From Psammoneis japonica (lineage: Eukaryota): a stretch of DNA of 64,000 nt. A program made the translations under genes and the position numbers. Numbering within the stretch: position 1 is the first letter of the stretch; every line of letters starts with the position of its first letter. The DNA lies in NCBI GenBank assembly GCA_008632985.1, contig QPGO01000081.1, positions 248,001-312,000 of the forward strand, in the 5' to 3' direction. This document shows, piece by piece, positions 601 to 63,210 of the stretch. Under the pieces are notes generated by a model. That model was not told the origin of the DNA. It worked only from the letters and a program-made list of their open reading frames with translations, and made no database searches.

Positions 601-603
601 GCA

Positions 604-3008: not shown

Positions 3009-4711
3009 CTAGAAGCTAGAAACACTGGCATCTAGTCCAGAGTCGAGAATGTGGTCAAAGATGCTTTGCAGACACCAAAAAGTGCGCAAGTGCGAATCTT
3101 CTTCGGTTGTTGTTGGATTCGCAGTCGCTGCAGCAATTCGCACGTGTCGACACTTTCGTAGTCGTTCACAATTTGGTGCATGCGCGACATTCTTGGGGGG
3201 CGTCTTGCCGAGCTGGTAATGCAACAAACATGCCGGACATTGACACTCGACGCCTTGTTGACGAATCAGAGCCAGTTTTTCACGACCTCCGGACGTCGCA
3301 AAATCGGGATGCTGCGGACACAAACGGGTGATGCACTTGATTCGTTGAGCCACGACAAGCCTTGCAAAACGGAACTGTATCTTGTGGTGGTTGTTGGTTT
3401 GTAGGAGTAGTTTGGGCGAGTTGGCGGTTGGTAGGATCCAATGACGGGGTAGTCGTCAGTGCAGTGGTCATGTTGGAGGAGTTCTTCTCTGTCGCAGCAT
3501 TGGGAGTATATACTTCTTCTTGTCGACGGTCGATCTTGATACTTGCAGTAGGTTCGGCGTTGAGGTCCGACTCCGCAGACGTACTCGTAGTAGTAGCTTC
3601 GGCAGGGACGAGCACGACTCGAACTTGCATCGACGGCGACCGCAGTAGTAGTAGTACTTTCCGACGACAGTGCTTAGGAAGAGGCCGCTGGACCTGACGG
3701 TTTCTGTTGCATCGGCTGCGACTCGACTTGTTGTTGTTGTTGTTGTTGGATCTGCTCATCTTGCAATGCCGTGCTGTCTTGACGAGCCATCGATGATGTA
3801 TCATCCACTCCATCACGTCGTGATGTTGGCGGTTCTCGCGCCACGCAAAAGACAATTGGTCGCAACCTGGCCATGGCCAAAAAGTCATCATAGAGAAACC
3901 ATTCCTTGCGTGTGCGAGTGGACGAGGTGTGACAAATGACATCGCCCACTTGGACTCCGGCGAGAAATGCCTACGAATCAGGACTGACAGTTGACACAAT
4001 GGCGTGCGACACATCACCACGCTTGTTTCGCTTGAGCGCCACTGCCATGCCAATCTTTCCCTCCTCACACTATGCAATCGTGTCACTGATGTCCCAATCC
4101 ATGTAATCGTCGGGATCCACCACCACCTCCTCCTCTGTTTCCGGCTGCTGTTCTTGTTGCGGTGGCTCTGGCTGCTGCACTTGTTGAGGTTCCGATGGCT
4201 CGTGTTCCGATGGCTGCTGCGGTGGCTCCATTGGCTGCTCTTGTTGCGGGAGTGGCTGCTCGTGTCGTGGCTCCGATGGCTGTTCTTGTTGCCACTGTTC
4301 TACGACTTGCTGATGCAAGTCTTGCATGACTTGCATGGCCTCTTCTTCTTCATCATTTCCATTTGCGTGCTCTTTCAACTCACAACGTGGCATCTCCTCT
4401 CATTGCAGCATTTCCTCCTCCTCTTGTTGTTCAAGTGCCTGTGCATCACGTTCGAGCTGCAACAAGTTGTGTCACAGTCTGTGATGGCCATTGTCTTGAG
4501 ATTCTGACAGCAACTGCAATGTCTGTGTTGCTAGAGATGGAAGAATGGGAGAATCTGGCTGTGGTTGCTGCAATGACATGGAAGGAGAGTGTTGCAAAGG
4601 AGCCAGCAAATCAATGGATCCATCATCCGCATCCTCACAATGACCACCGCTGAGGGTTGTGTGTGAGTCGTCACCATCATTTGCCATTGTCGTGAGCAAC
4701 GACAGGTGCAA
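3009..4711 (-). pseudogene. Disrupted gene: Q/E/P-rich region, PDZ-like segment and C-terminal Cys/His zinc-binding module
   Basis: Fragments in several frames join: KIGMAVAL..AIVSTVSPDS*AFLAGVQVGDVIC (PDZ-like), then FCKAC..HHP/LCPQHPDF..CQCPAC..H..C across a +1 shift near 3317. The 5' half lies in TA-depleted DNA. Confidence 0.55.
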
Positions 4712-5850
4712 TCCTTCCTTTGCTTCTTCTGTCAGTGGAACAGATCAACAATGATGTGACACAGTGGGAATGAAATGCAAGAATGAATGTTGCCACTCAT
4801 GTGTGTGTGACAGCAAGGAGAGATGGATCGCTTTTGCTCATCGCGAGTTCTGTTCAGCTCTGTTGTGAAACAGTGTGCACTCTCAGATTTTTGGGGCGTG
4901 CGCCAGACTGCCAGTGCAATTTCTGTGTGACATCCAGGTTGCTTCTGTTTGAAACGGAGATTGCATTTCGGCCCTGCATGCAACTGCAAAAGCCACATGC
5001 TCTCATCACATCATCACATTGTCCATGGCAAGTGCATGTCATTGCATTGCCATCATTGTTGTTGTGGCCACTTTGCTCTCTCTCTGTTTGCACACTTCAA
5101 TTGACTGCAAGCAGCAGTGTCACTCCACAATGCCTCCATTGCATGGGACAAATCATCAAAAGATTGGCATTGCCTCTTGCAAGAACCTTCAATGATGGCA
5201 GCCTGAAAATGAGAGTGAGTGGGATGCATGGCAAAATGACAATGGGGAGAAGAGTGTCGTGGATGCGACTGCTTCCAAAACAAGCAACCAGAAGAAGAAG
5301 AAAAATGACAAGCCCACAGTTGCCCAAAGTCTTGTGGGGCATCCACAGATGCACTGTTCACAGATGCACCGTCCATGGAAACAACAACAAAAGCCAGTGA
5401 CAACACTCCACTTGCAGCAAGATTGGCTGCTGCCATGGTGACTCGTCCAGCAAACAAAATGTGCCAGACTGAGGACATCCTCTGAAGACTTGACAAACAA
5501 GGAGGAGAAGAAAAACTCAACTGGCGACAATGTGGAATGGATGAATGGCATCACCAGTGCAACAGCAGATTTGCCAAAGGTGGCCACTCCGCCTTGTTTG
5601 ATGCCCGGCACCTTCTTTTTGTTGAGACGCAGTGTCCCAGCCCTCCCGTGCCCATTTTGGAGTGCGACTCCATTCCCGATGACAAGAAGGCAATGCGAGG
5701 CCATCCAGGTGGTGGTGCAGTGGAGTGGCGGCAAATTTTGTGTCCCGCCATGTCCAATGTTTTTGATCTGTCCCTCTGCCTGCTGACCACAATCATGGTG
5801 ACATCTGGAATGCGACAGAGGAGGGACAAAGGTCACAATGGGAGGCACAC

Positions 5851-7403
5851 ATGCTGGGTTGGATTCACCGTGAGAGCAAGACTGCTTTGCTGTGCTTTGC
5901 ACAACCTCTTGATCTCTTGAAGAGTCATGATGATGGTCATCTGTCATTGTGTCTGGATGTTGATGGAGAACTGGCCAAGATGCTGGGGTCATTGGTGGAT
6001 GTGTTGAGATGGAGCATGAATCATGGTGATGACATTCCAGATGCCATCATTGTGTGGATGATTTTGGAAGTTCTTCGTGCAATCAAAACGTTGCATCAAT
6101 GCCACATGGCACACAATGATTTGGGTTTGGATTCATTTCCAGCCACAAGGCACAAGAATCATGCTTGGAGTCTTGTCTGTGCAGGACTGGGAAGCAAGGG
6201 TTGCAAGTTTTCCAATGAGAGGAAGGCCAGTGATGGAGAAGACTGGAGGTTCTGTCATGACTTGTGCAGGATTGCTCATGTGGTGCACATGCTGCAATCA
6301 GGTGGGATCCTGCTGGAGTTGGAACCAGTGAGAGACGGTTGCATGTTCAGCTGTCACAGTCACGGCACTCAAGCTCCGCTGGAGTGGGGTCACTTCTTTT
6401 GGGCCATTCTCAATCCACCTTTGCAAGACTGCGGAGTGCACATGGTGGATGTGGCATGTTTGCATGATGAATCTCACTTTCATGCATGGTCAGAGCTTGC
6501 CGATGCCTGCAAGGCTCCATTGCATCTGACGGACTGTGACACGTTGCATGTCAACAGTTTCATGGAAAAGGCTCCATTCCAAAAGGACAAGGGATGATCA
6601 GAACTGTGCTTGGCTGTCAAATTCATCAAGTCCACAGATGCTCATTTGGATGTCTTCCCAGAAGAAGCACACTGCAATGTGCTGTCAAGGAAAAAGTCAA
6701 AGAGCAACAAAAAGCCACATGGCAAGAACAAGAACTCCTCCAAAGTGACTTGAATGCTGCTGCTAAGCAGTTTGATGAATGTCACAAGAAGGCCAAGGCA
6801 GAGAAGCACCAGTTGCAAGCCAAGTGCAAAGCCAAGCTCAGCTCAGTCATGCTGGAACACAAAGCAGCAATGCGGACTGAACAAGAGGCTTCCAAGGAGC
6901 CCAATTCCAACCTGGAAAGTGTTTGCCAGAAAGCTCTCAGTGTCAAGGAGTCTCATTGTGAAGAGCTGTGTTGACTTGAAGAGCATCATTGGAATGAGAT
7001 CCAACAGCACAAAGAGCAACCAGATTCTGACAAGACAATGGTCAACACGAACAAGTGTGTCTCACAAGAGCAGCTGACAGAGCTTGCGCAACAGCTGCAG
7101 GTTGAGGACGAACATCATCACTGTGAGCTTGAACAAGTTGAGGAGGCTTGTGGCAATGAGATTTGTTGATTTGAAGAGCGACTCTTGTCCAAGATGGAAC
7201 ACATGACAAAACTTGAGTCAGACATGTGTGTGTTGCAACAGCAGGTTGCAGAACTCATGGAGCAGCTTCGACAGAAGAATAAAGAAGTGCTTTGGTTGCA
7301 GGAACATGAAGATGACACAGTGCATGAGGAAAAGATGCTGGACAAGTGTGCCAGGGAATTTGATGGCAAAGAGGCCAGAGTCCAAGAGTCACTCAGGCAA
7401 TGA
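5851..7403 (+). pseudogene. Decayed Bub1-like kinase domain followed by a long coiled coil
   Basis: GSLVDVL..IIVWMILEVLRAIKTLHQCHMAHNDL (subdomains V-VIb). FCHDLCRIAHVVHML resembles the Bub1 YQxDYxGxAxxxHxL segment with Y->C/H. The downstream E/K/Q heptads are broken by TGA stops; the kinase ORF has no Tyr. Confidence 0.55.
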
Positions 7404-8296
7404 GTGCGTGCCTGCAAGGAAAGGGCGGATTGTCTGCAATGCGTGGAAGAGCAGCCATTGGAGGGTGCCATTGCAGTGTTGGGGTTCAAGACGCCACTGC
7501 CAAAAGGCAAGGCAGCGAAGTGATCACCCCTTTTGGGAGAGAAATGGCAAAGATCCCCGCAACTTTCCTTGAAAAGATCCAGCCCCAAAGGATGAAGCCC
7601 CCGAGTCCATCATGCTCCAGAGTGCACACTGACTGGGTTGTCTCACAACGGTGATCTGAAGAGTTCTGCAGCAGACTCTTCATCATGCTCCACATGAGTC
7701 AAGACAAAGAACAAGGCCAGATGAAAGCTTGTCATTGAGCCTCTTTCAGACTCTGAGTCAGAGGAAGACCAGCTGATGCATTGGGAGCAATGCATTGTGT
7801 GACAGAGAGTCTGCCACAGTTGAACTGAGTTGAGTTTCCATGTGACAAAATGACCATTCCTCGATTGGATTCACAAACCCCCAAAGTCTGGCGCACCACT
7901 TTCATCCATCCATTCATGCATGCAAGTGGTCCGCCTCTTGCAATTGTCATCCACATCATTGGCAATGATGCAACACTTCCAAAGAGCCTCTTCTGCCCAC
8001 ACTGAGGGATGGGGCGGAGGGCCATGAGGAGCACCACTCTCCAACAACTTGAGACAATGAGCCTTGGTGAGGTGTTTGGCCAACAGAATGCCATCATGAT
8101 TGTCACAGAAAATCTGTGCCAATGTCAGAATCTGTGCCTGTTTTTCAGGGCTTGAAAAAATCTGCACCTGTTCTGAACGGAAATCTGGAATCTGCACCCA
8201 GTGCAAAAGTGCACAGGATGTGCGTGGAACGTGCCAGGCCTGCCTGGGGAGGGGTTCTTCAAATCTGAGGAAATCCCAAATCCAGTTTTGGCAGAA

Positions 8297-9170
8297 TCAG
8301 TTAAAATCCATGCTTTTTGACAATCTGCATCCATTTTTCTGGAATTCTTGAAAATCTTTCCAATGTTGCACTTTCAGCACAATTGCAAAAGGTGCACTGA
8401 AGAATGTTTGTCCAAGATTTCTTGAATTTGCCACCACCGTTGAGCAGCAGACCCATGATGGCATCTTTGTCGGGGCTCCATCTTGACAAATGGGTTGTTT
8501 CAAGACCCAACAATCATCACAGTCGCCGCTCCAATTGCAGTGCCATTCATTGTTCCTGTCACAGTGGGCCTGCCACTGGACATGCAATGCTGCACACTGC
8601 TGTTTCATGTCGGGGGTGATCCAATCGTCTTCAATTTTGGCAGAAATGTGGTTGGGAATCTTGGCAATCTTGGGCTTGTCAGAAGTGGCAGAGGTGGCAC
8701 GTTCACAAATGTTCTCAACCACCACGTGAAATTTGGCCAACTTGCCCAAGAAGGAACCCTTTTGACCCACCTCAATGCTGTTCAGTTCGGTCAAGAGTCG
8801 GGGATCTTGTTCATCAATGTGACTGACCTTCGTTCCTCCGTCCCTCTGTCCATGCGAGTGCTTGGTTTCCTGGAATTTCAAAGACCAGAGATGGCTGCAA
8901 CAGGAATCTTGTGTCAGATTTGCACTCTGCAAAATGTCAAAGACAGAGGAAACAAGATGATGGAGTCCGTGTTTCGACGTGACGAGATCGACAAAGTGGT
9001 CGTGTTCTGCGTGTCCCCGACCACCTTGGAGCTGTGTCACATGAAAGCAACAGACAGCAGCACTGGCAGCAGTCGTGGATGTGGTTGGCTTGGCTGCAGG
9101 TTTCACATCATCCTTCGCTGTGTTCAAGGAGACGCCGCCGGCGTTGCCGGACGCGGTCGTCGATGGGAGC
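8297..9170 (-). pseudogene. Decayed gene of unknown function, divergent from the YEATS-amidoligase gene
   Basis: Globular-looking ORF (HDHFVDLVTSKHGLHHLVSSVFDIL..SHLWSLKF) with no Tyr in the 374-aa frame; the C-terminus appears to continue in another frame (8301-8513). Confidence 0.45.
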
Positions 9171-9426
9171 TCCCGAAGGTGTTCTCGAATCAGCAGAGGA
9201 CATGGCAAAAGGCTGAGATGGACGTGAAAGTGTTCAAACAAGGCAAGGTTGCTTGGATTTTGTTGCAAAGCAGTGCAATGCTGAAAATTGAAAATGAAAA
9301 GGCAGCGTTGGTCCGAATTCAAATCTTGTGTGCTCGTTTGTCTGTGGGATGTGTTCTGCACGAGCGTGGCGCCACGAACCCAGACGTCTGTGTCAAAAGT
9401 CACGGCACAAAACAGCAGCAAGCACC

Positions 9427-10902
9427 ATGATGATGAACAGCGGCGGCAACACTACGGACGACCGTTCCGTTCAGTTTTACGTGGAAAACTCCTACAGGAA
9501 GGTTCCTGAGGAAAAAGCCGAGTGGGATCGTAGTGGACGGCATCGCAAGATTCATGATTGGATGCTGTCGGTTGACATTGTCGACGGCGATCCGGATCTT
9601 ATCGAGCGAGTCGTTTTCGATCTGGGTCCTTCCTTTTCCCCGCAACAGTTCATTTCTCGCTCTCCTATCCCTGTGCAGCTGTCCAATGGCCTGTCTGGAT
9701 GGCGATTCTGTACCCGTCAGCAGTCGTATGGCTCCGTCACCGCGCAAATTTCCATCCGAGGGACTGGCGGCACCAAGAAGATGGCGGTATCTCACACCGT
9801 TGTCCTGGAAGAAAGAAGCAGGAAGAAGAACATTCTGCATTCCTTTTCGGAACATCGTCCAGTAGTTCCACTTCGTATGAACTAGGTTGCTGAGGAACAA
9901 CGCTTTGGAATCGAGCTCGAACTATCCTCGGCCCCCGGTGTGGATCCGTCCACCGTGGCCAACATGATGCCAAGCCGCGCGGGCAACGTGTTTGTTGTGG
10001 ACAGCTATCGTCAAGGCCGCCAAGACTACGACGGTGGCTGGAAGATTGTTCCAGATTCCAGTTTGGTCTGCAATGCCAGCATGCCCAGCTGTCACAAGTT
10101 TGAGCTCGTGTCACGAATCCTGCAGGGAGGAGAGGGTCTTTCCGAAGTTGCCTCCGTCACCAAGTCGCTTCAACAGCTGCCGTTGCAAGTGAACAAGAGC
10201 ATGGGATTCCATGTGCATATCGATGTATCGAAGTGCTCACTCGAACAGCTCATCAAGGTCTGTCAGAATTTCATCAAGTACGAAGACGTGATGGATTCCT
10301 TCCTGCCACCGTCCCGGCGCACCTCGAGTCCCGAGTGCACGCGATACTTTCAAAGCAACCGTACGTCGGTGCAAGCCTTGTGCAATGGACGAAACTCCAA
10401 CAAGAAGCGTCATGACGTACTGTCCGAATGTTGCAGTGTGGAGGAACTGGTTGCGATAATGAATCAAACGGGCCGATACTACAAGCTCAATCTCCAAAAT
10501 TTGGCTACCGGACGCCAGCCGACGATTGAGTTCCGTCAGCACTCGGCCACCTTGAAGTACGACAAAATCAGTGCCTGGATCCGCTTTTGGTACGTAAGAA
10601 TGTGTGTTGGTGCTAGTAGTGATGTCTTTTTTGGCAGCTCACGCCGCTCGCCCATCCCTTCCACTCTTCTCTCTAGCGTTGCGTTTGTCCGAAACTCGGC
10701 TCGATTGGCCCCACCGAAACCTTTCAAGGAGGGACGTGATTTGGAGTTTCAGTTCAATGCTGTCTTTCAGTATGTTATCAAGGATCGTGCCCTGCGCAAT
10801 TTCTACAAGGCTCGACAGTGGCAAGTCCTCCAAGAGGCATCATGCTGCAGCGGCTGTGCCAGTGGAGGGACCTGCTCTGCTACAGTTGCGTCGTCCAAGT
10901 AG
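9427..10902 (+). CDS. YEATS-like domain fused to Amidoligase_2-type COOH-NH2 ligase, with a Cys-rich tail; in-frame TAG at 9883-9885; intron 10590-10676
   Basis: YEATS: HDWMLSV, IERVVFDLGPSF, QQSYG, H-x-V-x-L. Same frame after the TAG: RFGIELE, WKIVPDSS, FELVSRIL, GFHVHID, RYYKLN, TIEFRQH, ISAWIRF. An 87-nt GTACGT..CTCTAG intron restores WIRFCVAFV. Tail CCSGCASGGTC. Confidence 0.8.
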
Positions 10903-19497: not shown

Positions 19498-19504
19498 TGT
19501 TGTA

Positions 19505-21450
19505 CAGTGTTGGAGAACACAACGTGTGTGTGTGATGTGAGAAACAAGACACAAAGATTTGAAGATGAGTGAGGGTGGGCGTGGGCAACTGCTTGAGTGT
19601 GCGTTTTTACTTGTTGACAGCAAGACCACGTGCAACAACCACACCTGCCTACGCCTGCCATCCACAAACATCACACCAGAGGAATGACAATGCCCACCCT
19701 CTCTGTGACAAATGTGCTGAGCACACCCGTTTGTGCTCTCTCCCCCAGTGTGCACGTTGTCACGAGCAGAGGACTGCACACCATACCACCTGCGGTGTGG
19801 GCTTGGTTTTGACCACTTGTGTGGCACGAGCTTTTGGCTCTTGTTCAGAACACAATGTGTTGGAGAAATGGAGTTGGGTGTTGATGATGTCTCTAAAATG
19901 GAGGGGTCTTCTAAACTCAGATTTTGTGACCATGACAATGAGAGTCAGTCATTCTTTGCACAGTTCTGGGCTTGTTTTGTTTGCTGGAGCAAGCCGAGGA
20001 GGCCAGCTGCCCCCCTTTCTCCAGATCTCCAGATCTCTGAGTTTTCTTCTCTCTTTCTTGCTTTCACTCTCTTTCACAAGAGCCATGCTCATGTTGAAGG
20101 CCAGACATTGCTCACAATGCAATTCCTCTCTTTTCTGTCAAGGCACAACACTGCTGGCTGTGAAACGCTCCTTCATGGACACAACTGGGGAGGGTGCACA
20201 CACGCTGCTGCACTGCACGCCACGGAAGCGCCTGGAGCACAATGATGGAGCAACTTTTCAGCAAGTTGCAGGCACCCTGGAGTGTCAGCACAGAATGCCT
20301 TGCAGCTTCCAACACAAATTCTTGGTCCAACAGTGGCGCCTCCAAGGCAAAACCGCTCAAAGCGAGGAGAGGGTGTGTGTGTCTGTTTTGGTGCCCCCAG
20401 CACAGTTTGCCACAAAAGTGTGTGGGGACAATCCAGTTTCTGGGCCATGGGGTTTGCACCCTGTGTGTTGGCTGCACAGAGTGCATGAAGCATGATCACT
20501 GGAAAGAGGCCCTCACCCCCACCTGTCACCCTGCCATGTCCAAAGAAGGCCTGGCTGCAGCAGCTGGTCTTTGTCTTCCAGCAGCAACACAAAACCCATG
20601 AGAAAGTCTTTGCACACCAAAAAGACTTTTTCTCTGGGGACAAATTCCAAAGCAAAATGGCCCACTTGCATGACCTGCATGGTGGTGAGTTCCCTCTTGG
20701 TTTGAGGGCATTCTAAGATTTGTTGGGGGGGGGGGGGGCAAGAACAAGTCGTCAGCACATTGTGCGGCAGGGAGAACAACCTTTGGGTCATGATCTCTCT
20801 CAAAGTTGGAGAGGGGATCAAAAGACAAAAGAAAGCAAGTGCTTGTCTTTTTGAATGCACTCTGAACAACCTTCTTGTCATCCTTGAGACAATCAAAAGC
20901 AAGCTGGGGTGTTCCCCCCCCCCTTTTTTTGTTGGACAGGACACTTTGCAATCTCAACTCTTGCCCGCTCATGATGTGCGCCTGACCAACTTCATGGAGA
21001 ACTCCTTGCCACAGGAGCCCTGCCATTGCTTGGGACCTCCCCACCTTCTGATGGCTTGCACTGTCACTTTGACACTGTCCGACATGGTGGCCGCAATTTT
21101 CCTGCCTTGTTGCGGCATTTTTTTTGCTGTCGCCAATGTGCTTTGGTCCATGCTGATGGCCAAGGCCTGGCAAAGAAGAGAGAGAGATGCTCTGGCCTCT
21201 CTGGCTGAGATTCCTGGGTTGTCTGAGCATGCCACACTTCTTTTTCTGGCATGTGGGCAGCACTTGCTCCTCAGCACAGAAGTTCTGGGTTGGTTGACAC
21301 CACGCATTTGGTGGTTGATTGTTGGAGTCAGAGCAAGATGTCACCACCACTGCCAGTGTGCTCACAGAATCTGTTGATGACAGTCGTTGGACAATGGGAG
21401 TGTGAAGGATTGCGCTGTTCCCAAAACGAGGGGACCAGCAGGGGGAAGAG
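19505..21450. other. TpA/CpG-depleted hypermutated block C (content unidentified)
   Basis: TA nearly absent (survivors such as tttac, ctaaa, ctaag); overlapping Cys/His-rich ORFs in all frames. Confidence 0.85.
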
Positions 21451-41502: not shown

Positions 41503-41533
41503 TCCGAAATCGCGGAGAATTCGCGATTTCGGA
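41503..41533. repeat. Perfect 12-bp-stem inverted repeat at the edge of block E
   Basis: tccgaaatcgcg-gagaatt-cgcgatttcgga. Confidence 0.85.
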
Positions 41534-45600: not shown

Positions 45601-45887
45601 GGTGGCCTTGCATTGCGCTGGTTCAAGCACAAGGACAAAGGTTTGGTCACACACATGCCACCTTCCGACGTTGATGAATCATCCTGCGGCATTGAAGTGG
45701 AACTGACAAAATGCACATAAATTTTAATCTGGCAATTCAACCAAACGTTTTGAGTGCATGTCACATGCAGCTCAAACAAGTTTAAACGTCAACAATGCAC
45801 GTCCTAGACAACCGACACCAATTTGTCGAAATTCATGCAGCAAGGGACACTTGCAACTCACATGTCCAATTGGGACCAGCTTCGAAT

Positions 45888-47544
45888 TCAGGACACCCAA
45901 TTTGTCATCGCTTCAATTCCACAAAGAATGCTGTGAGCTTCTCTTTTCTTCATCTTTTGCAGCTGCTTTGCTGGTTGAATTCCTGGCCATGACACCTCAA
46001 GGGATGTTTCATTTGATGAGTGTTGGTGAACCAGAGACTCTTCATTTGACGAGTGTTGGTGAACCAGAGCCTGAAAACGTGGTTCGACAACAAGGTGGCC
46101 AAAGCACAATGGATTGCCCATCAGAACATGCCGCCATGTAGGGTTGTGCTCAAACAGCTGCACAACACAGCACAGTGCACATTCGACCTTCCGCTCCATG
46201 GCCAGAACACCTGTCAAATTGTAGAGAGCACCCTCGATTTCTGCATCCTCTTCAGCAAGCTTGAGAGCAAAGACTAACTCATTCTCTGCTTCTTCAAGCC
46301 TGCCTGATCGTTTGAGCACAGCAGCCCTGCAGGTGATGACTCTCGATTTGAAATTTCTTCCCACCTCTTCAGGCATGATGGCAATCGCCAAAGAGCAGGT
46401 GCAAAGGGCTTCCTGACTCTTGTGAGCGTTGGCACAACGCATGCCCTCATTGTAGAGGTGCCAGAACTCGTTTGAGGGAGACGCAAATTGTCAATGCAGG
46501 GCTTGTTCTGGTGTTGCTGGCATCCTTTGTGCCTTGGGTGCAGAAGCAGGTGCATCCTTTTGTTCCTCAAATGATTTGCATTGGTTGCCAATTTCATTCA
46601 GAATTCCGTGTACGTGCTCCTTCAAACGCTCTTTCGCCTGATTGTTTGTGCCATCGTACCCACCCGGCTGGGCTTGCAGAAGCTTCAGAATGTGATCCCG
46701 CTCAGATGTTTGTGAGGCCTCGGCTTCTTCCACCTTGATGCTGTGGAGAGCTTCTTCAAGAATCTCAACCGGACTCTGGCTAGAGTCTTCTCGCTCGAGC
46801 AGCAAGTCTCTGATAAGACCAAGCTTCTCCCTGGGTGGCAAAACCACAAAGACCTGGCAGCTGTTGCTGGCCAGTGCTTGAGACATCTCGCAGATGCGCC
46901 ACATGCATCGGAGACAAATTGGGTTTTGCCACGGTGCCATCATGCAAACAATCCTTCCAATTCTTTCTACGCGGCTGCCAAACGTGTCCAAAAACTCTGC
47001 TGTTGGCACATCTGCCTTCGATGCTACCCTGTGCTGGTTGACACACAGGAAGCACATCCACACGAAAGTGGACCCAAGCTCCAGGTTTTCTCTCTTGCAA
47101 AAATCAACCAGTGTTCCCACAATGTCACCAACCATGCATCTTCTCAGAAGAAAGAAGGCAGCATGAGGTGCAAAGCATTGTTGCATTGAGACCATAGAAC
47201 ACGGATGCTTGCCCCCATGTGCAGCTGAGCATGTGCGTGGCAGGTCCCACGTCATCAGATCCTGTCAAACAATGCACGTAAGCAGCTCCGATTTCTCCAT
47301 CCAGAGGACAACAAGTTCTAAGACCCCTGCTCCGAATGAAACCAGGTGGGCCTTCCAAATCCTCAATGTCACAGATCGTGGACTCAAGCAAGAAGCCCGC
47401 CCCTTGCACTTCATCTAGAAACACGTCCTTGAGGTGATGCACCGACATCCCGTCTGCGTCTGTTCTTCCCATTTTTTGGTGACCTCCAGTGTTTGTTGGC
47501 CCTGCCGGTAGCCCTCTCCATCTTGGCACAGGCCCATTGCGCAT
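45888..47544 (-). pseudogene. HET-like domain + TPR gene (diatom 'kinesin light chain'-annotated family), hypermutated; intron 47140-47212
   Basis: GMSVHHL, CPLDG..GAAYVHCL, ATHMLSCTWG|CMVGDIV, FVWMCFLCVNQHRV, MMAPW.NPICL, AEAS..ERDHIL, then TPR-like helices; family Tyr positions read Cys. Confidence 0.75.
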
Positions 47545-49899
47545 TTCACACTCCTAAACCCCAAATTGCACACCTTTTTTTGGCACTTTGCGCAGTGCAC
47601 ACAATTCCACGTTTCTCTGGTGCTGGATGACAGCAAGACACACAGCAATCCAATTGAGTGAGAGTTCAACCGCCCTGCATGCATTGTGAATTTCAAAGAG
47701 GAGCTGAAGGTGTGCAAGGAGAAGATTGATGAAACAGATGATGACCATTGGACCACTCTTGAAGGGGCGGATGAGCATGACACCATGCTTGCATTGAAAA
47801 AGCAGGAAGAAGCTGGAGATGAGAGAATGCAATCCTTGAAGAACACATGGGCCGACTGGCTTGGAAAGAAAATGATGCAAAAGTTGCAAGGGGGGTTTGG
47901 GAATGGTGGCGTGTTCACCATGAGATGCATTTGGCCATGTCTGAAGCTGTGTGTCCAGCTGGTGGTCCTCGTGCAACTTTCCAGTGCTCCAGTTGAGTGA
48001 GGTTTTTCTCAGCTCAAGCACATCATTGAGACAGTTCAGCACAACAGGCTGCATGATGCCATTTTGTTGCAGCTTTTTTCTCATTTGCACAAGGGATGTG
48101 ATGTCAATCAAGACCATTGGTGGTGCTGCAAGAGAAGCCCAGAGTCAAGAGAGCTCTTTCTCAGCTCGAGTGTGCTTGCATCATGGTGCAATTTTGTTCT
48201 GTGTCATTTTTTCTTCTCATTGGCAAAAGGGGTGTGGTTTGGTGGCAATGCAGTGTGGCAGCAATGTGGCCAACATGATGCAGTGGTGACATGATGCACT
48301 GGCAATGTGATGTGGTAAAATGCAATCGAGAAGCAATGAATGGTGTCATTGCTGCATTGCTGGCAACAAAGCATGGTTGCCGGAACCTGGTGCTGCACCA
48401 CACACACTCTGCACAGTGTGCACTCTTCGCAATGCATTGCGCACTCTGCTGACAGAAAATCCCCACTTTGCGCACAGGCCCATCCCTCTCATGCCTGGGT
48501 GAGCTCGTGGTGCAGTGCAGCAAGTGGGCGGGTGTCTGCGGTGACCGAACTTGGTCACTCGTGCTCTGTGTGAGCATGCCTCTTCTTGCTTGCTTCTGTC
48601 TGTAGACTGTGCATTCTGCCACATTCTCCTTGGCTCACTCACGAATGCTTCTTTGTCAAGTCTTCTGAGCTGGATCTTGCACTGCAATGATTGCAGTCAT
48701 CTGCATGGCTCTGTTCTTTGTTGTTCATGCCTGTGCAGCGTTTGACGAGACAAAAGAGAAAATTTGTCTGTAAGAAGCATGAGCTGAAAATTGGGTTCAA
48801 GAGTGATGCACAGAGAATCAGCCCAATGACACTCATGGAATTGGCAACAGCAAGCTGCTGTGACTCATCAATCTGGGAACTCGTTTGGCTGCATTGGAGT
48901 TTGCTTTCATGTGTCTGTTTGTTCTCCTTGCGTCATTTGGATTGAGCGAGATTGCATTCTTGACTCTTCATTTTGTGGCACACTGTTGATTGGCTGGTCA
49001 CCAAAGTCACACGCACTGTTGCATGCAAGACCAAGTTTGTGCACTCTGAATTGGAGGATGCTGTTGAGCTCATGCACAAGAGTTCAGTGATGGACAAAAG
49101 TTGCCATGCTGTTGTCCCGCATTCACTGGAGAGCATGGAGTTGAAGCACCATTTTTTTCATGATTTCCAGTGCCAGGAAATGAAGCTCCAACAACTGATG
49201 TGATGGCCAAGAGGAGGTCAACCATGATGCAGCACATTCTGGTCTCTTTCCACCAGGTTGTGTTGCAACCAAATTGACATGTGTGAGCACAAGTTTGCCA
49301 CAAGAACACACCAAAAAGCTTTCCATCACTCATCTTGGCCTGTCCTGATGAACAATTTTGCCCTGAATTCTGTCTTGGGGCAACTCAACAATCAATCGCA
49401 CAATGCATCCTCATGGCACCACAAAAATGCCAGATCTTTCCATTGCCATTGATTGTTGGAGTTGGTTGACCACAGTGTCCTCATGGACAGCTGAACAAGT
49501 GGCAGCGGCACTGCATTTCATTGTCAGGTGTGCAGCTTTTTAGTGGCACTTGGACCTTGTCAGCCAGCATGTTGCTGTGCGGGCAGTGCTGCAGAAGCAT
49601 TTCACCTGAAAACAAACAATTGTGATTTTTTCTTGATTTTGCAGCAGGCTTGCTCAATTCACAAAGCTGTCCCTCCCTTGCATGCACCTGCTGCTTGCAG
49701 GGAAGAGCTCAATCTTCAACAAGACATTCAGGACATTGTCATGTCACACAGCTGACATCGCACACATGGCAGACTCAACTTCATGCACACACACACTTGC
49801 TCTGAATCATCATCAAGACTCAGTTGCATCCAAACTGCTCCCACTCACTCCACCTGAACATCCCTCCATGATTCATCCACCCTGGGGAGTGTGAGAATG

Positions 49900-51482
49900 T
49901 CCACAATTCTGATGATGAATTTGTGTGCACCTTGCTCATCACTGCTCACTCAGCAGCCCCTCCAAATGAGTTGCAAAATGATCTCCACCCCACCATGGGG
50001 AGCTCTTTTGGGGGGCAATGGTGTGGTGGTCTGACAATCACACAGTTGAGCATTTTGATGAAGCTCTGCAATTGTTGCACTTGTGTCATGTGAAACCCAC
50101 AGCTTTTGATGTGATGAAAGTTTGCTTGCCAACAACCTGTGTGAGAGAAGGGCTGCAACACGGCCACCAACACACATGTTGACAGCATTGAGACAGGCTG
50201 CCTGGGACAGTGCCAGAGTTGATCAAACAAGAGCAGAAGAACATTGTTTTCTGCACTTTCCCCAAGGCATTGGAGCAATTGCATGTTCAAGCAGGCAAGG
50301 ATTTGGCAACAGACTCCATGGTTGAAATCCAGACCTGCGTGGGCAACAAAAATGTTTTTGCTGATTCCAATGACTCTGAAAGAAAGTGCAAGAACAATGA
50401 GTCTGGCAGCAGCAGTGGCAACTTGAACAAGCAAGGCAAAAGCAAGCATGCTGATGGCAAGAAGCAACCCCACCTGAATGATCCATGTCCAGTTCCGTGG
50501 CATCATGGCAGGCACACTTGGGCTCAGTGCTGTGACAACTCAAGCAACGCCAACTGCCGTGGACCTCAGAACCACACTGGTCAAGGTGGCAATTGCAACA
50601 GCGGTCATGGACCAGGCCATGGAGGTCATGGCAATGGTTGAGGCCCCGCAGATGCTTTGGAGGCAATGGATTTGATTGGAGCAACAGCAGAGGCAGGCTG
50701 CAGAGGCCAGCATCACAACAACTGCAACAACTGCAATTGGGGTGGCAACCATGATGACAACAATGACAACCAGAATGGCAGCCAACGGTGTCACAAACAA
50801 TGATGGGGGGGGGGGGTGCTGATGATCATGGTGGCCAAGGTGTGGCTGACAGTTGTGCTGCTTCCAGAGTTCAACAAGATGAGATGTGCTGACAGCTGTG
50901 CAGCTTGTGCTTTTGTGCTCCTTGTGTGCATGGCATTGTTTTGGGCCAAGATTTCCTGGACAAGTTTGGGCTCCACCTCAACTTTGAAACAAGAACACTG
51001 TGTTGGCTTGACCATGTCATTTCCATGAAGGAGCCACATCATTGGCTCAAGTCACACAACTGGCATGTTGCCTGGGACAGAATGGATGAGTTCAATGAAG
51101 AGTGGGAAGAAGATGAGTCAGATTGTGGCTTCACATGGATGAGCTGCATTCTGGATGCCACAAGTGTGAGAAAGCAGACACAGTGATGCCACAAAAACTC
51201 TGGACAATCCAATGGATGAGCAGAAGGAACAACTGCAAGTGGCATCAGAGAAGCACAAAAGATTGTTCAGCAGGTCACTGGGAAAGTTCAAGGGCAAAAA
51301 AGCGCATTTGGAAGTCAAGGAAGATGCTGAGCCCCGCCATTCCAAACTGCACACAGTGCCTCAGGTCAATCCAGTTGCATTCAAAAAGGAGCTCAAACAT
51401 TTGCTTGGTCAAGATGGGGGTGCTCCCCAACCTTGTGGACTGACAGAGTGGGTTGCAGGCACTTTCATCATTCCAAAAAAAG
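49900..51482 (+). mobile_element. Ty3/gypsy LTR retrotransposon relic (gag, protease, start of RT), truncated
   Basis: Gag knuckle DPCPV..H..HTWAQC..N; protease end HGIVLGQDFLDKFGLHLNF..W..ISMK; RT start KRLFSRSLGKF..HLEV..AEPRH..VP..FKKEL..TEWVAGTFIIPKK. No LTRs identified. Confidence 0.8.
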
Positions 51483-51900
51483 TTTGGCAGGAGAAAAAGG
51501 ACTGGCTGGCAAGCTCATCACAGGAATTCAAAAAATGCTGGCAGTTGCCTCCACCAAGAGAAAGCTCCTTTGTTTTGTTGGCTTGGCACAAGGTGGGGCC
51601 TGCTGGGGAGAGAGGAGCTTAAAAGAAAAATGTTCAAAGATGAAGTCATTGTCACCAAAATCTCTTTTCATTGTTCTCCTTTTTTGGAAAACCAACGGCT
51701 GCCAAGAAAGACCAAAAAGTGTTGTGGCACTGAAAAACATGCAAAGATGAGCTGTTGGTGTGACTGCAAATTGTCTGTTCATTTTTCTCCTTTTTTGGGA
51801 ATTCAAGATGTGCTGAGAAAGACCAAAAATGTTTTGTGGCACTGCCTGCACTTTGTTCTTTTTGTGTGTGTGCTGGCTCCCTCCTGACTTCACATGACTC
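51483..51900. mobile_element. Dispersed repeat copy 2, abutting the gypsy RT
   Basis: Homologous to 37722-38110; begins immediately after the FIIPKK codons. Confidence 0.75.
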
Positions 51901-53841
51901 ACAAGACCTGCAATGTGCTTTTTGCTGGCTGCTGGGCAGATCATGTTGTGACTTTTCCCAAAAATCAGAGAATTTCAAACAACCAAGCTTAGCCAAATGA
52001 AGTGCACACAGGGGTGGTCCTTTTTTTGCACCAACTCTTTCTCTGGGATGAGCAGACACAGGAGCTCAAGTGAGGAAAAGCAACTCTCTGGCCCACTGCA
52101 TTGTTTGTGTGGCAAACTGTCTTTTGCACAAAGCGCACCCAAGTGATCTCTTTGCAGAGGAAAAAAGATGCAAAAAAGAAAAGGCACGACCTCTGTGGCC
52201 AGTGCACCACATTGTTGCAATGTTGCTGGCTCTCCTTGGGTCACTGACACGTGTCTTTTAGAGAAAATGAGAGAGTGTGTTGCAATGTTCTCCAGTTTCC
52301 TGGGAGCATTTTGCACCTTTGGGATGTCTTGCAGCAAAGCTTTCAAAGAGATTCATTGTTCACATGAGCATGGCAAAAACATGAGCTGAACATGGCACCA
52401 GAAAAAATCAGGGAAAGAACAGACCACTTGTGCAGAGAGTGGCTGCGAGTCCTCCTGAATAACAGGGGTTGAGCAGCACGTTCCTGCCTGCTGGCACAAA
52501 AGCCACATGTGAAAATGAAGCAGGATTTTCAAGGGTCAACTTCAGCTGTGGCAGTTGAGACTTTGTGGCCTGCTTTGTTGTGACAACAAAGAAGTGCAAT
52601 GGCTGCTGCAGAGGTGCAAGTGGAGATGAGAGACACTTTGATTTTTTGTGGCACACCTTGCCTCCTGTTTTTCTCAATTTGACTCAAGTGAATTTTTCAC
52701 TTCTCACAAGGGTCCATTGCCTTAAATTGCACAACCACTGAAGGCATCTCTTTTGTTGCATGAGTCTTTGTGGCTGTCATTGTGCATGGCAAAACCTGCT
52801 GTGCCCAAATGCAAATTGCCCAAGCATGGTTGCCTTGTGCTTGTTTGGAGGAAAATGCCAGAAAAAGCAAAAGCAACTTGCTCCCCAACAAATGCAACAC
52901 AAGAAGCGCTGGCATCCTTCAGCCATTTTGAAGACAATCCATTTCCTCCTTGGCATCCATGAGCCATTGGCACAGCAGCCAACTCCACCCCATTTTGAAC
53001 CAAGCATGACATCTCAGTGGAATCATGATTTGCTGTGACTGCTTTCTGCTGTTGATGCATTGAAGCAGAGCAGCATTGTTGATGAGATGAGCAAGAGTGT
53101 TGAGGTGATCATTTGCAAGCACTGTGATGGCACTCAGAGTGTGCAAAGCCATTGCCAGTGCTGCCTCCACTTGGCACAAAGCATGGGCCACTGCAAGATG
53201 CACCAGTTTCAAATCCCATCTCAGGTGACTCTCGAAAAGGCTCAGAAAGCCAACATGACAGCACATGCACAGAAGAGACAGTGCCTCTTGTTTACAATCC
53301 AGTCTGTCAACAAATGAATGGTTGCTTGGAAGGTCATGCTGTGAGGGCCTCTCAAAGAAAATGATGAGACAGAGGGCTTTCTTGGCATGAGCATCCAGGC
53401 AAATGCAATGTAGTGCACAGGGAATTGCCTTTCTGCTGTTTGAGCTGGTGTTGGAGACGATTCATTGACAGTGTCAGACCATGTGAGTCTCCAAGGAAAG
53501 CCAAGGGGCACTGCTTTTGTTCATGTCTGCATCTATTCAAATGGTCGGATGCCATTTATCATCTGTGGAACTGGATCGAGTCTGATGGAAAAATCCACAA
53601 AGTAAGAAGTCTAACTGAAGGAACCTACCCACTAATTCCAACAAAGACGATTTTCACTGTAAGAAAGGTGTGATACAGAGCGAATCCCTCCAAACAGTGT
53701 AGTAGAATTCGTTGCAAGACAAAACAATTACATATATAATATCCTTAGTTCCGAAAGAGAGGCAACTGCTATCTTTTCACTTGGCTACTCCAAGTACACA
53801 CAAGTGGGTCAATCGTGGATATTTGAGAAAATCGCAGCTGT

Positions 53842-59308: not shown

Positions 59309-60130
59309 CTAATTCTGTTTCTTTTGCTCCTCATCATGCATAGACTTCAGATTCGTCACCTTGAGTTTACCGTCCGCCGTGTGTTCGGCTTCTCCAACAT
59401 CATACAAACGCGACCAGATGAACCACAGACCCACTTTGAACTCCTCGAAATCGACCACGCCGTCGTGATTGGTGTCCGTGTCTCCGAACACTTGTTTGGC
59501 CACATTACATGCATCGGGGAGACCCCAGCCTTCAAACAGCTCTTGCACCTCTTCTAGCTCAATGGTGTTATTTTCTCCAGCAATGATGTGAAAGGCCGCC
59601 CTGGCGACAGCCAAATGCTCGTCTTCCGGGTGCTTTTGCTTGAACTCAGCCAAAGTGCCGTGGAAATCAACCGTCTTGCCATTGAACTCGTCGGGAAAGA
59701 CATCTGCAACGGACCGATTGACTTGCAGAAGATTTCGCATGTCGGGCAAGAGCAGCTCCAGGAGAGCATTCCACGCGAAAATGACCGAGACCAGTTGCAC
59801 ACATCCCGTCGGTCCAATGGCCACGGGAAAGTTGGTGACGCATGCCGGAATGAGCGCTCGATCACAACTCGTTTCGCACTCCACACCGAGCTTCAATTGA
59901 ACCTTGAAGAACACTCGCACCAAGGCAAAGCAGTTGACAGCGTAACCCATGGAAACGACGGACTCGGTCGATCCCTTTTCAAACCAGACATCGGAGCACT
60001 TGACGAAAATAAAGAGCGCAAGGAAGCAGTGCAGTGGTTGCATGAGCTCTCTATGACCATGAAGGTTGCGCGATTGCCAAAACGACGACGGCACGTGCAA
60101 GAGCAGACATTCGTACAGTGCCGGTGCAAC
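59309..60130 (-). pseudogene. Membrane + EF-hand protein, apparently 5'-truncated and TA-eroded
   Basis: EF-hand DTNHDGVVDFEEF and upstream hydrophobic helices; no clear ATG before the block F core; TA rare but CpG abundant from about 59440. Confidence 0.6.
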
Positions 60131-63100
60131 GCATCATCTGCACATGCTGGCCTGGCACACAGTGTAAAATGTCACATTGTTGTGTTGCACAATCTCTGCT
60201 GCTGCTCTCTACACTCTGCTCTGCTCTCTAGAAGCAGCCAGGAGCTAGCTGCCACTCTGGCAGCAGTGCTGGTAGCCAGTGGCAGAGGCCTCTCTGCTCT
60301 GCCACCAGCAGAGAGCAGCCAGCAGAGAGGGCCCTGCGAAAACACATGGCGACAACACACGCATTTGCATGATGCACATGCCATCGGCACTCACTGCAAG
60401 GAGCAAATCTCCACCGGTTTGAGTGGGATGAAGATCGCCTGCCTCCAGAAAAAAACACACATGGTGTTTGAAATCATGCAGGCCCACAAGGTGTTTAAAA
60501 CATGCAATTTGGTCACCAACATCCTCAGGAAATTCCAGGGACTGTGGGCCAGTTTCTGCATGAAAGCCATTTTTTGTGCCCCACTGAAAAATTAGAATGA
60601 GCTGAGGAGCTTGGAGACATGTGTCCTGGCCATTGCTTCCAGTTGCCAACCAGCTGCTGCTGGACCATTCTTGGCTTGTGAGCTGCACTGAAGCAGGCAC
60701 TGAACATGTGCAGGTTGCCCTGGGCAAAGGAGCAGAGCAGGCAGAAGGGCATGCCGATTCCATGGTGGCTGCGCTGGGGCCTCCAGATGCTGTGCAGCTT
60801 TGCATGCTGCGCTGGCAAGCAGCCACTTCACTGCCTGAAATCTGCAGCTGACAGGTGGGAGGGGGGGCTGCTCTTTGTCAGCGGTCCTTTTTTTCTGCAG
60901 GTGCCCCGATGGACTCAAGGTGCTGCAGGCCTGCAGCCACTGCTCAAATGAAAAGACCCTTTTTCTGCTCAGCCAGAACAGCAGCAAAACAAAAGAAGGG
61001 CTGCTGGGTGGTGTGCTGGGGCCAGGACGGGGACTGGAGCAGATCCATGTGTGAATCCTTTTTTCCTCAATGGGATTTCCAAACATTTTGGTCTCTCAAT
61101 GTGAAGATGATGGTTGCAGGGCGGGAGCATGCATGGTGTGCAACAGCCAGGTGTTCATGCTTCTTTAGTCTTTCTGGGTTGACTGCAAATCTTGTTTCAG
61201 CAAATCCATGATCTGCTGCAGTTTGTTTCCAGCTGCAGCAGAGGATTTGTCTTTGAGTGTGGCAAGCTTCTCAAGCAACTGGTCAACGGCAGCTCACCCC
61301 TGCTTTAGTGTGGATTCCAAAGCCTGCTGCCTTCCCTCCAGCTTCGCCATTTCATTTTCAACTTAGCTTCTGGACTCACATGCCAAGCACATTGGGAAAC
61401 TGGCTCCTTTTTGCTTGACTTTAAAGCAGATTGCATCTCCAGCAACTGCTGCTTTTGGTGCGCTTCTTTGTTGGTGACCTTCTTTGCCTTGCTCAGCTCT
61501 TTGCCTTGTTTGGCGGTGCCTTTTGCACACAAAAGGTTGTTCTTGAGTTCTGACTTGCTTGAATCAGCAAGCTCTTGCATTGTGAGGATCTCTTTTTCTT
61601 TCTGAGCCAAGTCCATTTGCATTTTTGATTCACTGGCCTTGAATCACTGTTGTTGTGTTGAAAGCATTTCATCTCTGGCAGAGCTTCCATGTTTCAGTTG
61701 TTCTGCTTTTGCTGCAAACTTCAACTTCTGCAAGGCGTTCTTGGAGATCCTTCACCCAGGTGCTTCCTTTTCTTTTTGATGTGGACATGGTGCAATTGAT
61801 GTTCACATTCTTCTGCAGCCAATTTCTGTTTCTGTTTTGGCTTTGTTTCCAATTCCCACAGCTTCAGCTCAACATCATTTTGGTGCTGTTGACAAGAAAG
61901 CATCAACTGTTCCTGCAGAGCAACTGATCATGATCATTCATGTGCCACAAGCTCCTCTTGCTGGGCACCAACAAGCTCATTGAGATGCTTTCCCTCCTTT
62001 TCTTCCTGCACATGCTTGGCTTCTTGAATCTCAAGGTTACATTCCTCATGAATGGCAGACAGCTGGTGCTGAAGAAAATCCACTTGTTCCTCTTTCTCCT
62101 TTTTCAGGGTCTCCATTTGATCCCCAACAACTGACAGCTCAGGAGCATCCTTGAGCTGGTTGAGATCTTCTGGATTTTTGCACCGACCCTTTTCCTGAAT
62201 CAGCTGGCCTTCCATTGGTGAAACATGCTCTTGTTCATTTCTTTCCTTTTGCATCATTTCACACTCCATTTCACATTCAGCCAAAATCTTGCTGAGCCAT
62301 CTGTGGCTCTGTTCTTGTCTCTTCCATGGACTTGGTTTGGGCAATGATTTTAACTTTCAACTTTGCAATTTCCTGTTCATGGCTCTGTTGTGTGTCCTTT
62401 GATTTGTGGACTTTCTTCTTGCTCCTTGTCCATGAGCTCCTTGAGGCCTGAAAGTTCCTGATCCTTCTTGTGCATTTGGTTTTCAAGGGCTGCAATGTCA
62501 GCACTTGAGAGTTGCAACTTCTTTTGTGTGCAAATGCATGTCAACTGTTCTCCACAGCCTTCCCCCAGTTCACCCCATCCCATTTGCACATCTTCTCAAC
62601 TCTGCTCCAGACGTTGTTGTGCAGCCAGCACCCAGAGACTCTCTGAGTGAACAAATGTGATCTGTGTGCTCCTTGTGCGCTCTGGCATCAGCTTCTCCAA
62701 CTGTCTGATGGTTTGCTTTTGTTGGCAAGCTTCATCCTGCAAAAAAATGTCATGATCTCGAACAAGCAAAATGTGTCTGTAACTTTAGAGACAGAACAGA
62801 GAAACAAAGTTCACCTCTTTCTAAAATTGGGCTCTGAGTGTGGTCATCAAAGAAATGAACAGTCTCACGGGAGTTGATCTTCTCTCTCCAGACTGGGCGC
62901 ATCAAGCCTGGCTGCACTCTGTGTGATCCATCTTTAGCATCAATGCCACTGTGGATGATTTTGATTTGTTCAAGTTGGTCAATCTCACGTTTCTGCAGTT
63001 TTTGCCAAACCTCATCCGAACCCTCTTTGGCGTGCAACAGAACAATCAATGTCTCTCTGATGCCTGGGCCTCTGCTGCAGTGCAGAGCCGGCAGCCTGGC

Positions 63101-63210
63101 CCACTGCTCTCTAGCCAGCTAGAGACCTCTTCTCTAGCCACTGCCAGTTGGGCCCTCCACTCTCTAGCTAGAGGCCGCGTAGAGCCCCAGGGCCCCAGCC
63201 TGTCTATCCC
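60130..63210. other. TpA/CpG-depleted hypermutated block F core, with a decayed coiled-coil gene on the minus strand (about 61200-63050)
   Basis: E/K/Q-rich heptad fragments broken by TGA, without Tyr; flanked by CTAG/CAG-rich patches. Confidence 0.8.

Follow-up and report, generated by a model that had tools for sequence, protein, structure and literature searches.

TpA-depleted islands in a diatom contig

The 64-kb stretch of DNA considered here, referred to as the window, comprises positions 248,001 to 312,000 of contig QPGO01000081.1 from the diatom Psammoneis japonica (GenBank assembly GCA_008632985.1). Eukaryotic genes lie in it between six blocks, or islands, in which the dinucleotide TpA is nearly absent (Table 1), and the subject of this report is the mutation process that very likely made these blocks. 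Composition was tabulated as observed/expected (o/e) dinucleotide ratios in 500-bp segments across the whole 64 kb, and all six TpA-poor blocks reported in a preliminary description of this DNA, made from the letters alone, were recovered at about the positions given there. With the block boundaries of that description, the blocks account for 24,835 bp and the sequence outside them for 39,165 bp; the block cores measure 21,045 bp.

The blocks have a TA o/e of 0.06 and a CG o/e of 0.33, with CA at 1.74, TG at 1.69 and a G+C content of 49%; outside, the corresponding values are TA 0.57, CG 0.97, CA 1.17, TG 1.12 and G+C 48.5%, which bears out the excess of TG and CA noted earlier. Single segments inside blocks range from 0.00 to 0.17 for TA and from 1.4 to 2.4 for TG and CA; CG lies mostly between 0.04 and 0.55, rising to as much as 0.65–0.95 at block edges. 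Segments outside have TA mostly at 0.4–0.8 and CG at ∼1, and the genes between blocks fall at ∼0.4–0.8 for TA. The block cores hold 48 TA dinucleotides, where ∼797 would be predicted from the density outside. One TA-free run named in the preliminary description, 4534–6763, is exact, being bracketed by consecutive TAs at 4532 and 6764, and further TA-free gaps in the blocks measure 1022, 1151, 1094 and 2079 bp.

The edges of the blocks are sharp, within ∼100 bp. At block 4, for example, TA per 100 bp runs 11, 3, 0 over 37600–37800, and TA is back at 38400. The first 500 bases of block 1 contain two TAs (o/e: TA 0.06, CG 0.31, TG 2.01, CA 1.83). In block 5 the decay of CG is strongest at 49–53.5 kb (o/e 0.04–0.2). 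A sub-stretch of the same block, 45700–47600, carries 20 of the 48 residual TAs at a CG o/e of 0.45–0.55; this could be an insert that is younger than the island around it or that was less exposed.

The composition also shows in the reading frames. Open reading frames (ORFs) counted from stop to stop, with a minimum of 90 aa, contain 0.19% Tyr, 5.9% Cys and 5.1% His in the blocks (n = 115), as against 1.85%, 3.0% and 2.8% outside (n = 125). Stops in the blocks, summed over six frames, are TGA in 1143 cases and TAA or TAG in 137 (65 and 72, respectively). The shortage of Tyr, the abundance of Cys and His and the predominance of TGA, all of which had been described before, are confirmed by these counts. 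With TAA and TAG erased from the islands, long false ORFs would be expected in annotation.

The assembled letters of block 2 can be compared with sequencing reads, a check that the preliminary description had proposed. Of the words sampled from 3000–11000, 97% occur in run X1, which probably derives from the same sample as the assembly. Contigs built independently from its reads cover 1071–8177 with six letters that differ from the assembly and 8148–12376 with three; they bridge both edges of block 2, unbroken from the genes, at a depth of ∼60 as in the flanking genes. Four of the six differing letters fall on sites that are CG or TA in one version and TG or CA in the other (CA/CG at 4856, CG/CA at 4956, CG/TG at 5370 and TA/TG at 7281), a slight hint of a raised mutation rate. 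The read-derived contigs reproduce the assembled bases across block 2 and exclude an assembly error. A second run, X2, listed as 'DNA?', behaves like RNA: its contigs lie on genes only and have GT..AG joints of 75, 79 and 87 nt. They do not cover 4670–9338, a blank that is no evidence of silence.

Table 1. Blocks, repeats and mobile-element remains in the window (coordinates are window positions)
Feature	Coordinates	Strand	Description
Block 1	1..600		TA- and CG-depleted; continues beyond the window start; stops at the unmutated MITE-like element at ∼590
MITE-like element (miniature inverted-repeat transposable element)	590..1100		14-nt terminal inverted repeats; adjoins block 1; unmutated
Block 2	3700..9452		TA loss from ∼3700, CG loss from ∼4300; TA-poor core 4533–9452
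Block 3	19500..21503		Core 19913–21503; at 21500 TA rises from 0 to 5 per 100 bp
Block 4	37717..38400		Small island; includes one copy of a repeat unit shared with block 5
Block 5	41400..53550		Largest island; core 41545–53292
Decayed tandem duplication	41905..42593	+	Copies 41905–42243 and 42252–42593, 69.5% identical; in block 5
Ty3/gypsy pol relic	50893..51574	+	Protease end, linker and first reverse transcriptase residues; extent by tblastn with intact relatives
Repeat unit of ∼370 bp	51485..51852	+	Block 4 copy at 37723–38110, 76% identical; truncates the gypsy relic
Block 6	59570..63100		Core 60594–62779; left edge adjoins the last exon of an EF-hand gene

TpA converted in place on both strands

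The losses and gains of the islands balance. Per kb, the cores have 35.6 fewer TA and 40.9 fewer CG than the sequence outside, a joint loss of 76.5, and 75.7 more TG and CA taken together. Repeats within the islands indicate how this came about: if each copy of a repeat resolves an ancestral TA or CG independently, TG is expected to face CA at one in two of the sites converted in both copies. In the decayed tandem duplication, 235 of the 338 aligned bases are identical, and CA facing TG makes up 15 of the 41 adjacent double differences; when the columns are shuffled the mean is 1.48 and the maximum 8, and none of 5000 shuffles reaches 15. The repeat pair shared by blocks 4 and 5 has six such double differences (shuffle mean 0.74; 0/5000 reach six). 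Part of this signal stems from CpG. The two tandem copies share CG at three sites and have it in one copy at ten, from which ∼8 doubly converted CpG sites, and thus ∼4 of the CA/TG pairs, are expected; by our own arithmetic the remaining ∼11 therefore need TA ancestors. Nearly all conversions in the tandem duplicate postdate the duplication. The block counts of TG and CA are near equal, and no strand-coordinated clusters of TG or CA, as from processive deamination of a single strand, were detected along the blocks (z = 0.9, 1.0, 1.7 and −0.5). This shows an in-place conversion of TA that used both strands and took its own course at every site and in every copy. Hits on both strands without strand runs would fit action on duplex DNA.

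The direction of change can be read from relatives of the mobile-element remains in block 5. An ORF at 51170–51619 matches 354 proteins of a representative library at E ≤ 0.001, and the long proteins among these are polyproteins of the Ty3/gypsy type that combine protease, reverse transcriptase, RNase H and integrase domains. The gypsy relic proposed in the preliminary description is thus real, although it is merely a fragment of ∼0.7 kb. When metagenome contigs were scanned with an alignment of the relic, 78 loci were obtained; no host gene was found among the ORFs that flank the gypsy sequences on these contigs. The TA o/e of the 78 loci spans 0.20–1.08, and TA-free runs of at least 300 bp occur in L034 and L055 only. 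The gypsy family is therefore not TA-poor by nature, and intact copies are not as TA-free as the decayed ones; the opposite outcome, intact copies equally free of TA, is what the preliminary description had named as fatal to its own inference.

Four of these loci (L034, L076, L077 and L064) represent a single element, their copies being 80–89% identical, and differ in their TA content: over a shared 1.45 kb, L034 has 17 TA and L076 22, as against 88 in L077 and 100 in L064, with CG at 49, 54, 49 and 44, respectively. Changes were polarised by three-way parsimony, with no consensus built, and those with a resolved context were counted. The L034 branch has 72 resolved changes, among them 41 of the types TA>TG (21) and TA>CA (20), and the remainder consists of other A>G/T>C changes (11), other C>T/G>A changes (7), CpG transitions (5) and transversions (8); 34 more changes have an ambiguous context. 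On the branch of its sister L077, none of 23 changes is of the TA type. With L076 as the decayed copy, the counts are 29/59 for TA>TG/CA and, for L077 measured against L076, 1/32. Expressed per base in L034, 41 changes fell on ∼100 TA bases and 11 on 384 other A/T bases (Fisher p = 4e-22). The comparison of decayed with intact copies that had been suggested beforehand thus gives, for the metagenome loci, a strong excess of TA>TG/CA on the decayed branch.

The two decayed copies were struck separately. At 61 sites TA is kept in both L077 and L064; 39 of these sites are converted in L034 as well as in L076, and at 16 of the 39 the two disagree, one having TG where the other has CA. The hits on L034 and L076 were therefore independent. 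At the protein level, all eight Tyr of the intact L055 copy read His (5) or Cys (3) in L034. Among 119 listed relatives of L034:914–2479 (P0179–P0297), seven have no Tyr and 21 have less than 1%, the median being 3.0%; judging by these sequences, converted copies are common in public metagenome protein sets, where they are annotated as ordinary ORFs. Locus L055 itself is composite. Its positions 1–2200 form a TA-free, CG-normal stretch of tandem repeats (0–3 TA per 200 bp), joined across a sharp edge to a TA-rich, intact-looking gypsy copy at 2200–3623. It looks like a young gypsy insertion into an island that had already been converted.

Conversion depends on the bases on either side of TpA, and in the same manner in the window and in the metagenome copies (R, purine; Y, pyrimidine). 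In the metagenome loci, none of 32 RTAY sites is still TA, as against 19 of 34 YTAR sites (p = 1e-7), and the mixed contexts differ in their products: RTAR gave CA 13 times and TG 5 times, YTAY gave TG 20 times and CA 7 times (p = 0.005). The TAs remaining in the cores of the window, set against those outside, number 26 vs 255 for YTAR, 20 vs 807 for the mixed contexts and 2 vs 413 for RTAY. An independent second sign of the rule in the window is the gain per kb, which is 26.7 for RCAR plus YTGY and 15.7 for RTGR plus YCAY. The rule is A>G in 5′-TAY-3′, which is the same as T>C in 5′-RTA-3′ on the other strand, and YTAR is the context least converted. That one flank rule holds in both sets is evidence for a single mechanism in the diatom and in the metagenome copies.

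The loss of CpG from the islands is a second process. In the tandem duplicate the conversion per copy is ∼0.6 for CG and ∼0.97 for TA. At the block edges 3700–4300, 9000–9450 and 59600–60000 TA is lost but CG is not, the loss of TA reaching a few hundred bases further, and L034 and L076 have likewise lost TA without losing CG, so that the two processes can be told apart. In the methylomes of diatoms, CpG methylation is concentrated in repeats, in blocks as long as 30 kb that lie beside unmethylated gene-rich stretches (PMC5124317), a layout that resembles the one seen here. Decay driven by 5-methylcytosine would explain both the block-wise arrangement and the half of the signal that is CG>TG/CA, and the CpG depletion is most likely due to 5-methylcytosine deamination in methylated repeat chromatin, in which case the blocks are probably methylated. 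Such decay cannot remove TpA, however: it explains the CG deficit (o/e 0.33) and not the TA deficit, and as the sole cause of the blocks it is ruled out by the TA lost without CG in L034, L076 and the block edges. The CpG loss also has a context of its own. TCG is the most depleted (block/outside 0.25) and GCG/CGC the least (0.49–0.56), and YCGR, with 57 in the cores and 569 outside, is lost more than RCGY, with 100 and 438.

The conversion process and its alternatives

The preliminary description had inferred a strand-symmetric A:T>G:C mutator that acts at TpA on top of CpG decay. This inference is supported by the mass balance and by the CA/TG double differences in the window, and also by the equal yield of TG and CA and by the polarised loci, and none of the three outcomes that the description had listed as refuting it was observed. 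It is very likely that a targeted mutation process turning TpA into TpG or CpA made the blocks. Taken as a whole, the best explanation, to which a probability of roughly 0.8 can be given, is TpA conversion in the islands together with a slower decay of CpG. Within the islands, a near-saturating, strand-symmetric transition process would turn TpA into TpG/CpA, most efficiently at 5′-TAY-3′ (5′-RTA-3′ on the other strand) and least at YTAR, and a slower and separable decay of CpG to TpG/CpA would act on the same sequence. One of these processes gains G:C and the other loses it, so that G+C stays at 49%. The lesion may arise through an enzyme that deaminates adenine within a domain of silenced chromatin, the resulting hypoxanthine becoming fixed as G when the DNA is replicated; the odds that an adenine deaminase is the agent are about even. 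The process could be the same as that of the chlorarachniophyte Bigelowiella natans, and it could serve as a genome defence that destroys reading frames, turning Tyr into Cys or His, among other changes.

The process in B. natans was observed directly. Of the 302 point mutations scored in the nuclear genome of mutation-accumulation lines, 231 lay within two stretches of integrated viral DNA, and 230 of the 231 are A>G or T>C, all of them on TpA according to the text of the preprint (bioRxiv 10.64898/2026.01.13.699255). Rates were ∼6e-7 per site per generation, in some lines only, with one line at 2e-6, and the authors (Mettrop et al.) favour adenine deamination with an ADAT2 homologue as the proposed agent (bioRxiv 10.64898/2026.01.13.699255). 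The statement in the preliminary description that no described pathway does this is therefore out of date. A literature search returned this 2026 preprint and no other report of a TpA-erasing footprint, in diatoms or elsewhere. The likeness to the islands is close: conversion is restricted to TpA>TpG/CpA, uses both strands and stays within delimited regions, and the long-term footprint, TpA depletion with a gain of CpA and TpG, is reported in clusters where transposon-type domains and ORFs lacking annotation are over-represented (bioRxiv 10.64898/2026.01.13.699255).

The two cases also differ in several respects. The organism there is a rhizarian and here a stramenopile; the targets there are giant-virus and virophage inserts and here intergenic islands with a gypsy relic; and the giant-virus insert has a TA o/e of 0.45, whereas the islands, at 0.06, are near saturation. 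CpG is depleted here as well and conversion follows the TAY/RTA flank rule, whereas the main text of the preprint mentions neither CpG nor a flank preference. The evidence there is direct, from mutation-accumulation lines, and here it is a footprint (bioRxiv 10.64898/2026.01.13.699255).

A second comparison is with repeat-induced point mutation (RIP), known from Neurospora and other fungi. Both processes leave dinucleotide-specific, near-saturating transitions in delimited non-genic DNA and destroy reading frames, and in both there may be some spill into the edges of neighbouring genes. RIP, however, changes C to T mainly at CpA, creating TpA and lowering G+C, whereas here TpA is removed and G+C is kept at 49%. 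For the chemistry, the closest known enzymes are of the TadA type: ADAT2/ADAT3 is the only eukaryotic family shown to deaminate adenine in DNA (PMC10354150). On DNA, the amphioxus enzyme BjADAT2 favours GAA where it deaminates adenine and TCG where it deaminates cytosine, and it prefers hairpin loops, whereas the footprint here is TAY, on both strands and in ordinary duplex sequence, a comparison that extends to this one enzyme (PMC10354150).

The chemistry might instead be directed at thymine. Oxidation of the T in 5′-RTA-3′ by a TET/JBP-type enzyme to 5-hydroxymethyl- or 5-formyl-uracil, followed by mispairing with G, would give T>C, seen as A>G on the opposite strand. Oxidised thymines do mispair with G, and some protists carry 5-hydroxymethyluracil preferentially at TpA. 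Sequence alone cannot separate an A-directed from a T-directed lesion, and the flank rule reads either way. The window contains no recognised TET/JBP-type enzyme. The GAA context of ADAT2 does not fit TAY, which speaks for the thymine route (PMC10354150), and the B. natans authors favour adenine deamination, as a proposal (bioRxiv 10.64898/2026.01.13.699255). Thymine-directed oxidation is on balance unlikely.

Biased mismatch repair would require no dedicated mutator at all, if G:T mispairs at TpA in methylated chromatin were fixed to G:C. There is a precedent for this outcome: very-short-patch repair in E. coli, which is bound to the Dcm context, converts TA to CA or TG via G:T mispairs near methylated sites and leads to depletion of CTAG. 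The net change is the same as in the islands, and the blocks, being CpG-depleted, are probably methylated, so that G:T repair would be busy there. The details fit poorly, however. YTAR contexts, CTAG included, are the least affected here (26 residual vs 255 outside in the window; 19/34 kept in the metagenome loci). Conversion of TA is near-saturating and about fourfold more complete than CpG decay within the same duplicate, and L034 and L076 were converted without CpG loss. The rate of 2e-6 per site per generation reached at TpA in one B. natans line (bioRxiv 10.64898/2026.01.13.699255) also seems too high for replication errors. A repair origin is accordingly rated as very unlikely.

The scarcity of TpA could in principle be native, inherited with donor DNA that avoids TA or maintained by selection against TA, as in nuclease avoidance, and TA is indeed under-represented outside the blocks too (o/e 0.57). 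This is highly improbable: an o/e of 0.06 and a 2.2-kb stretch free of TA lie far beyond the general bias, the gypsy relatives range from 0.2 to 1.08, duplicates were resolved independently after duplication, and the blocks have no recognisable function on which selection could act. Another route would be A-to-I editing of retrotransposon transcripts, ADAR-like or by a fungal Tad enzyme, before reverse transcription, so that the copies arrived already mutated. ADAR and fungal editing prefer G after the edited A, and here a pyrimidine is preferred. The strands are used equally (TA>TG 21 and TA>CA 20 in L034) with no strand runs, the tandem duplicate diverged in place, and the blocks cover non-transposon sequence and reach gene edges. 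RNA editing has a chance close to nil, even with a retrotransposon relic in one block and with the preference of ADAR for U before the edited A (bioRxiv 10.64898/2026.01.13.699255). A sequencing or assembly artefact, such as base-calling errors at modified bases in blocks that are probably methylated and were checked against what is likely to be the assembly's own sample, deserves next to no weight: independent contigs give the same bases at about the depth of the flanking genes, such errors would not leave TG at a site in one paralogue and CA at the matching site in its partner, and the same signature recurs in metagenome contigs from other projects and in database proteins (7/119 relatives without Tyr).

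Several observations weigh against a targeted conversion of mobile DNA by an adenine deaminase. The polarised alignment comes from metagenome contigs and not from the genome of the window. The relic in the window lends support, but it is a small sample. It has 12 columns that depart from a residue kept in at least 60% of 39 relatives; three of them fit an origin of CA from TA (Leu>Pro, Leu>Ser and Tyr>His) and one an origin of CA from CG, but seven need other single-base steps and one has no single-base route. Its three Tyr-rich columns, too small a number to carry weight, read His, Phe and Trp, the Trp lying in a poorly aligned stretch. The recognised transposon content of the blocks amounts to this one relic of 0.7 kb, the 115 block ORFs having no Pfam transposon domain. 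The high-copy MITE-like element beside block 1 has stayed unmutated, and the read-derived contigs run across block 2 in the way expected of single-copy sequence. As to a trigger by duplication like that of RIP, these two observations stand beside the conversions in the tandem duplicate, nearly all of which are later than the duplication. No deaminase is encoded within the window, and the only eukaryotic ADAT2 with a measured activity on DNA prefers GAA and not TAY (PMC10354150). Finally, run X1 is probably the same sample as the assembly, so that X1 does not exclude a library-wide artefact of chemistry; the paralogue and metagenome evidence does exclude it.

With targeted TpA conversion as the preferred reading, a TpA-erasing process would now be known from a second supergroup, with a more extreme footprint, a separable CpG decay and a new flank rule. 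A wider proposal can be put forward tentatively, at somewhat less than even odds: a dedicated enzyme system that edits DNA at 5′-TAY-3′ in silenced chromatin, shared by distant members of the Stramenopiles–Alveolata–Rhizaria (SAR) assemblage, would act as a heritable defence against transposons and viruses. If this were true, such editing would be the mirror image of RIP and a natural adenine base editor for duplex DNA, and its distribution in SAR would span a diatom, a chlorarachniophyte and at least one environmental eukaryote with a widely matched gypsy family. The unchanged G+C would also account for its having been missed, as islands of normal G+C would not be flagged by G+C-based scans. 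The footprint in both a diatom and metagenome contigs suggests that the process is widespread, and it may be old. For work on the mechanism, the islands offer three handles: the TAY/RTA rule with YTAR refractory, the use of both strands with no runs, and a conversion that is independent of CpG decay and faster. A natural enzyme that changes A:T to G:C on duplex DNA would be of interest for genome engineering.

Contents of the islands and the genes between them

The blocks are poor in recognisable sequence. Pfam searches with the 115 block ORFs gave no transposon or viral family, the matches being weak and at chance level apart from an EF-hand at a block edge, and when the blocks were compared by tblastx with the remainder of the window, none of the flanking genes proved to have a mutated paralogue in them. 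Self-comparison of the window yields just two repeat pairs in blocks, and the blocks are not copies of one another; the term 'repeat-rich', used of them in the preliminary description, therefore holds weakly within the window. Most block sequence is beyond recognition, and the islands between genes probably contain mobile DNA in decay along with old duplications and reading frames that are no longer functional.

The MITE-like element next to block 1 has a TA o/e of 0.48 and a CG o/e of 1.25. It is present on many read-derived contigs, at a summed depth of 1100–3700, compared with ∼60 in its flanks. Being unmutated in spite of its high copy number, it implies either that copy number alone does not bring mutation or that the element is young. 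Within block 2, the interval 8110–8360 contains a short repeated motif, AATCTGTGCC and AATCTGCACC each occurring twice within ∼90 bp. Another genomic copy, represented by a loose end among the read-derived contigs, has the sequence AATCTGTACC; this is an anecdotal example of a single TA resolved both to TG and to CA.

The highest TA content of the window lies outside the blocks, at 33500–35500, with an o/e of up to 1.0, a G+C of 0.43–0.49 and a CG o/e of ∼0.6; this stretch has no family match. Among the neighbouring genes, an amidoligase_2 pair adjoins block 2, one member at 9940–10902 on the forward strand and the other, which also has a RanBP-type zinc ribbon, at 11015–12325 on the reverse strand. 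An ORF with a YEATS domain (9298–9882) begins within the TA-free edge of the same block. The reverse strand of 23706–32012 carries an uninterrupted ORF of 2768 aa whose product, a COPII protein of the Sec16 type, contains 14 WW domains, an architecture common to other diatoms; its closest named relatives are from Fragilaria crotonensis (52%), Cylindrotheca closterium (47%) and a Nitzschia (41%).

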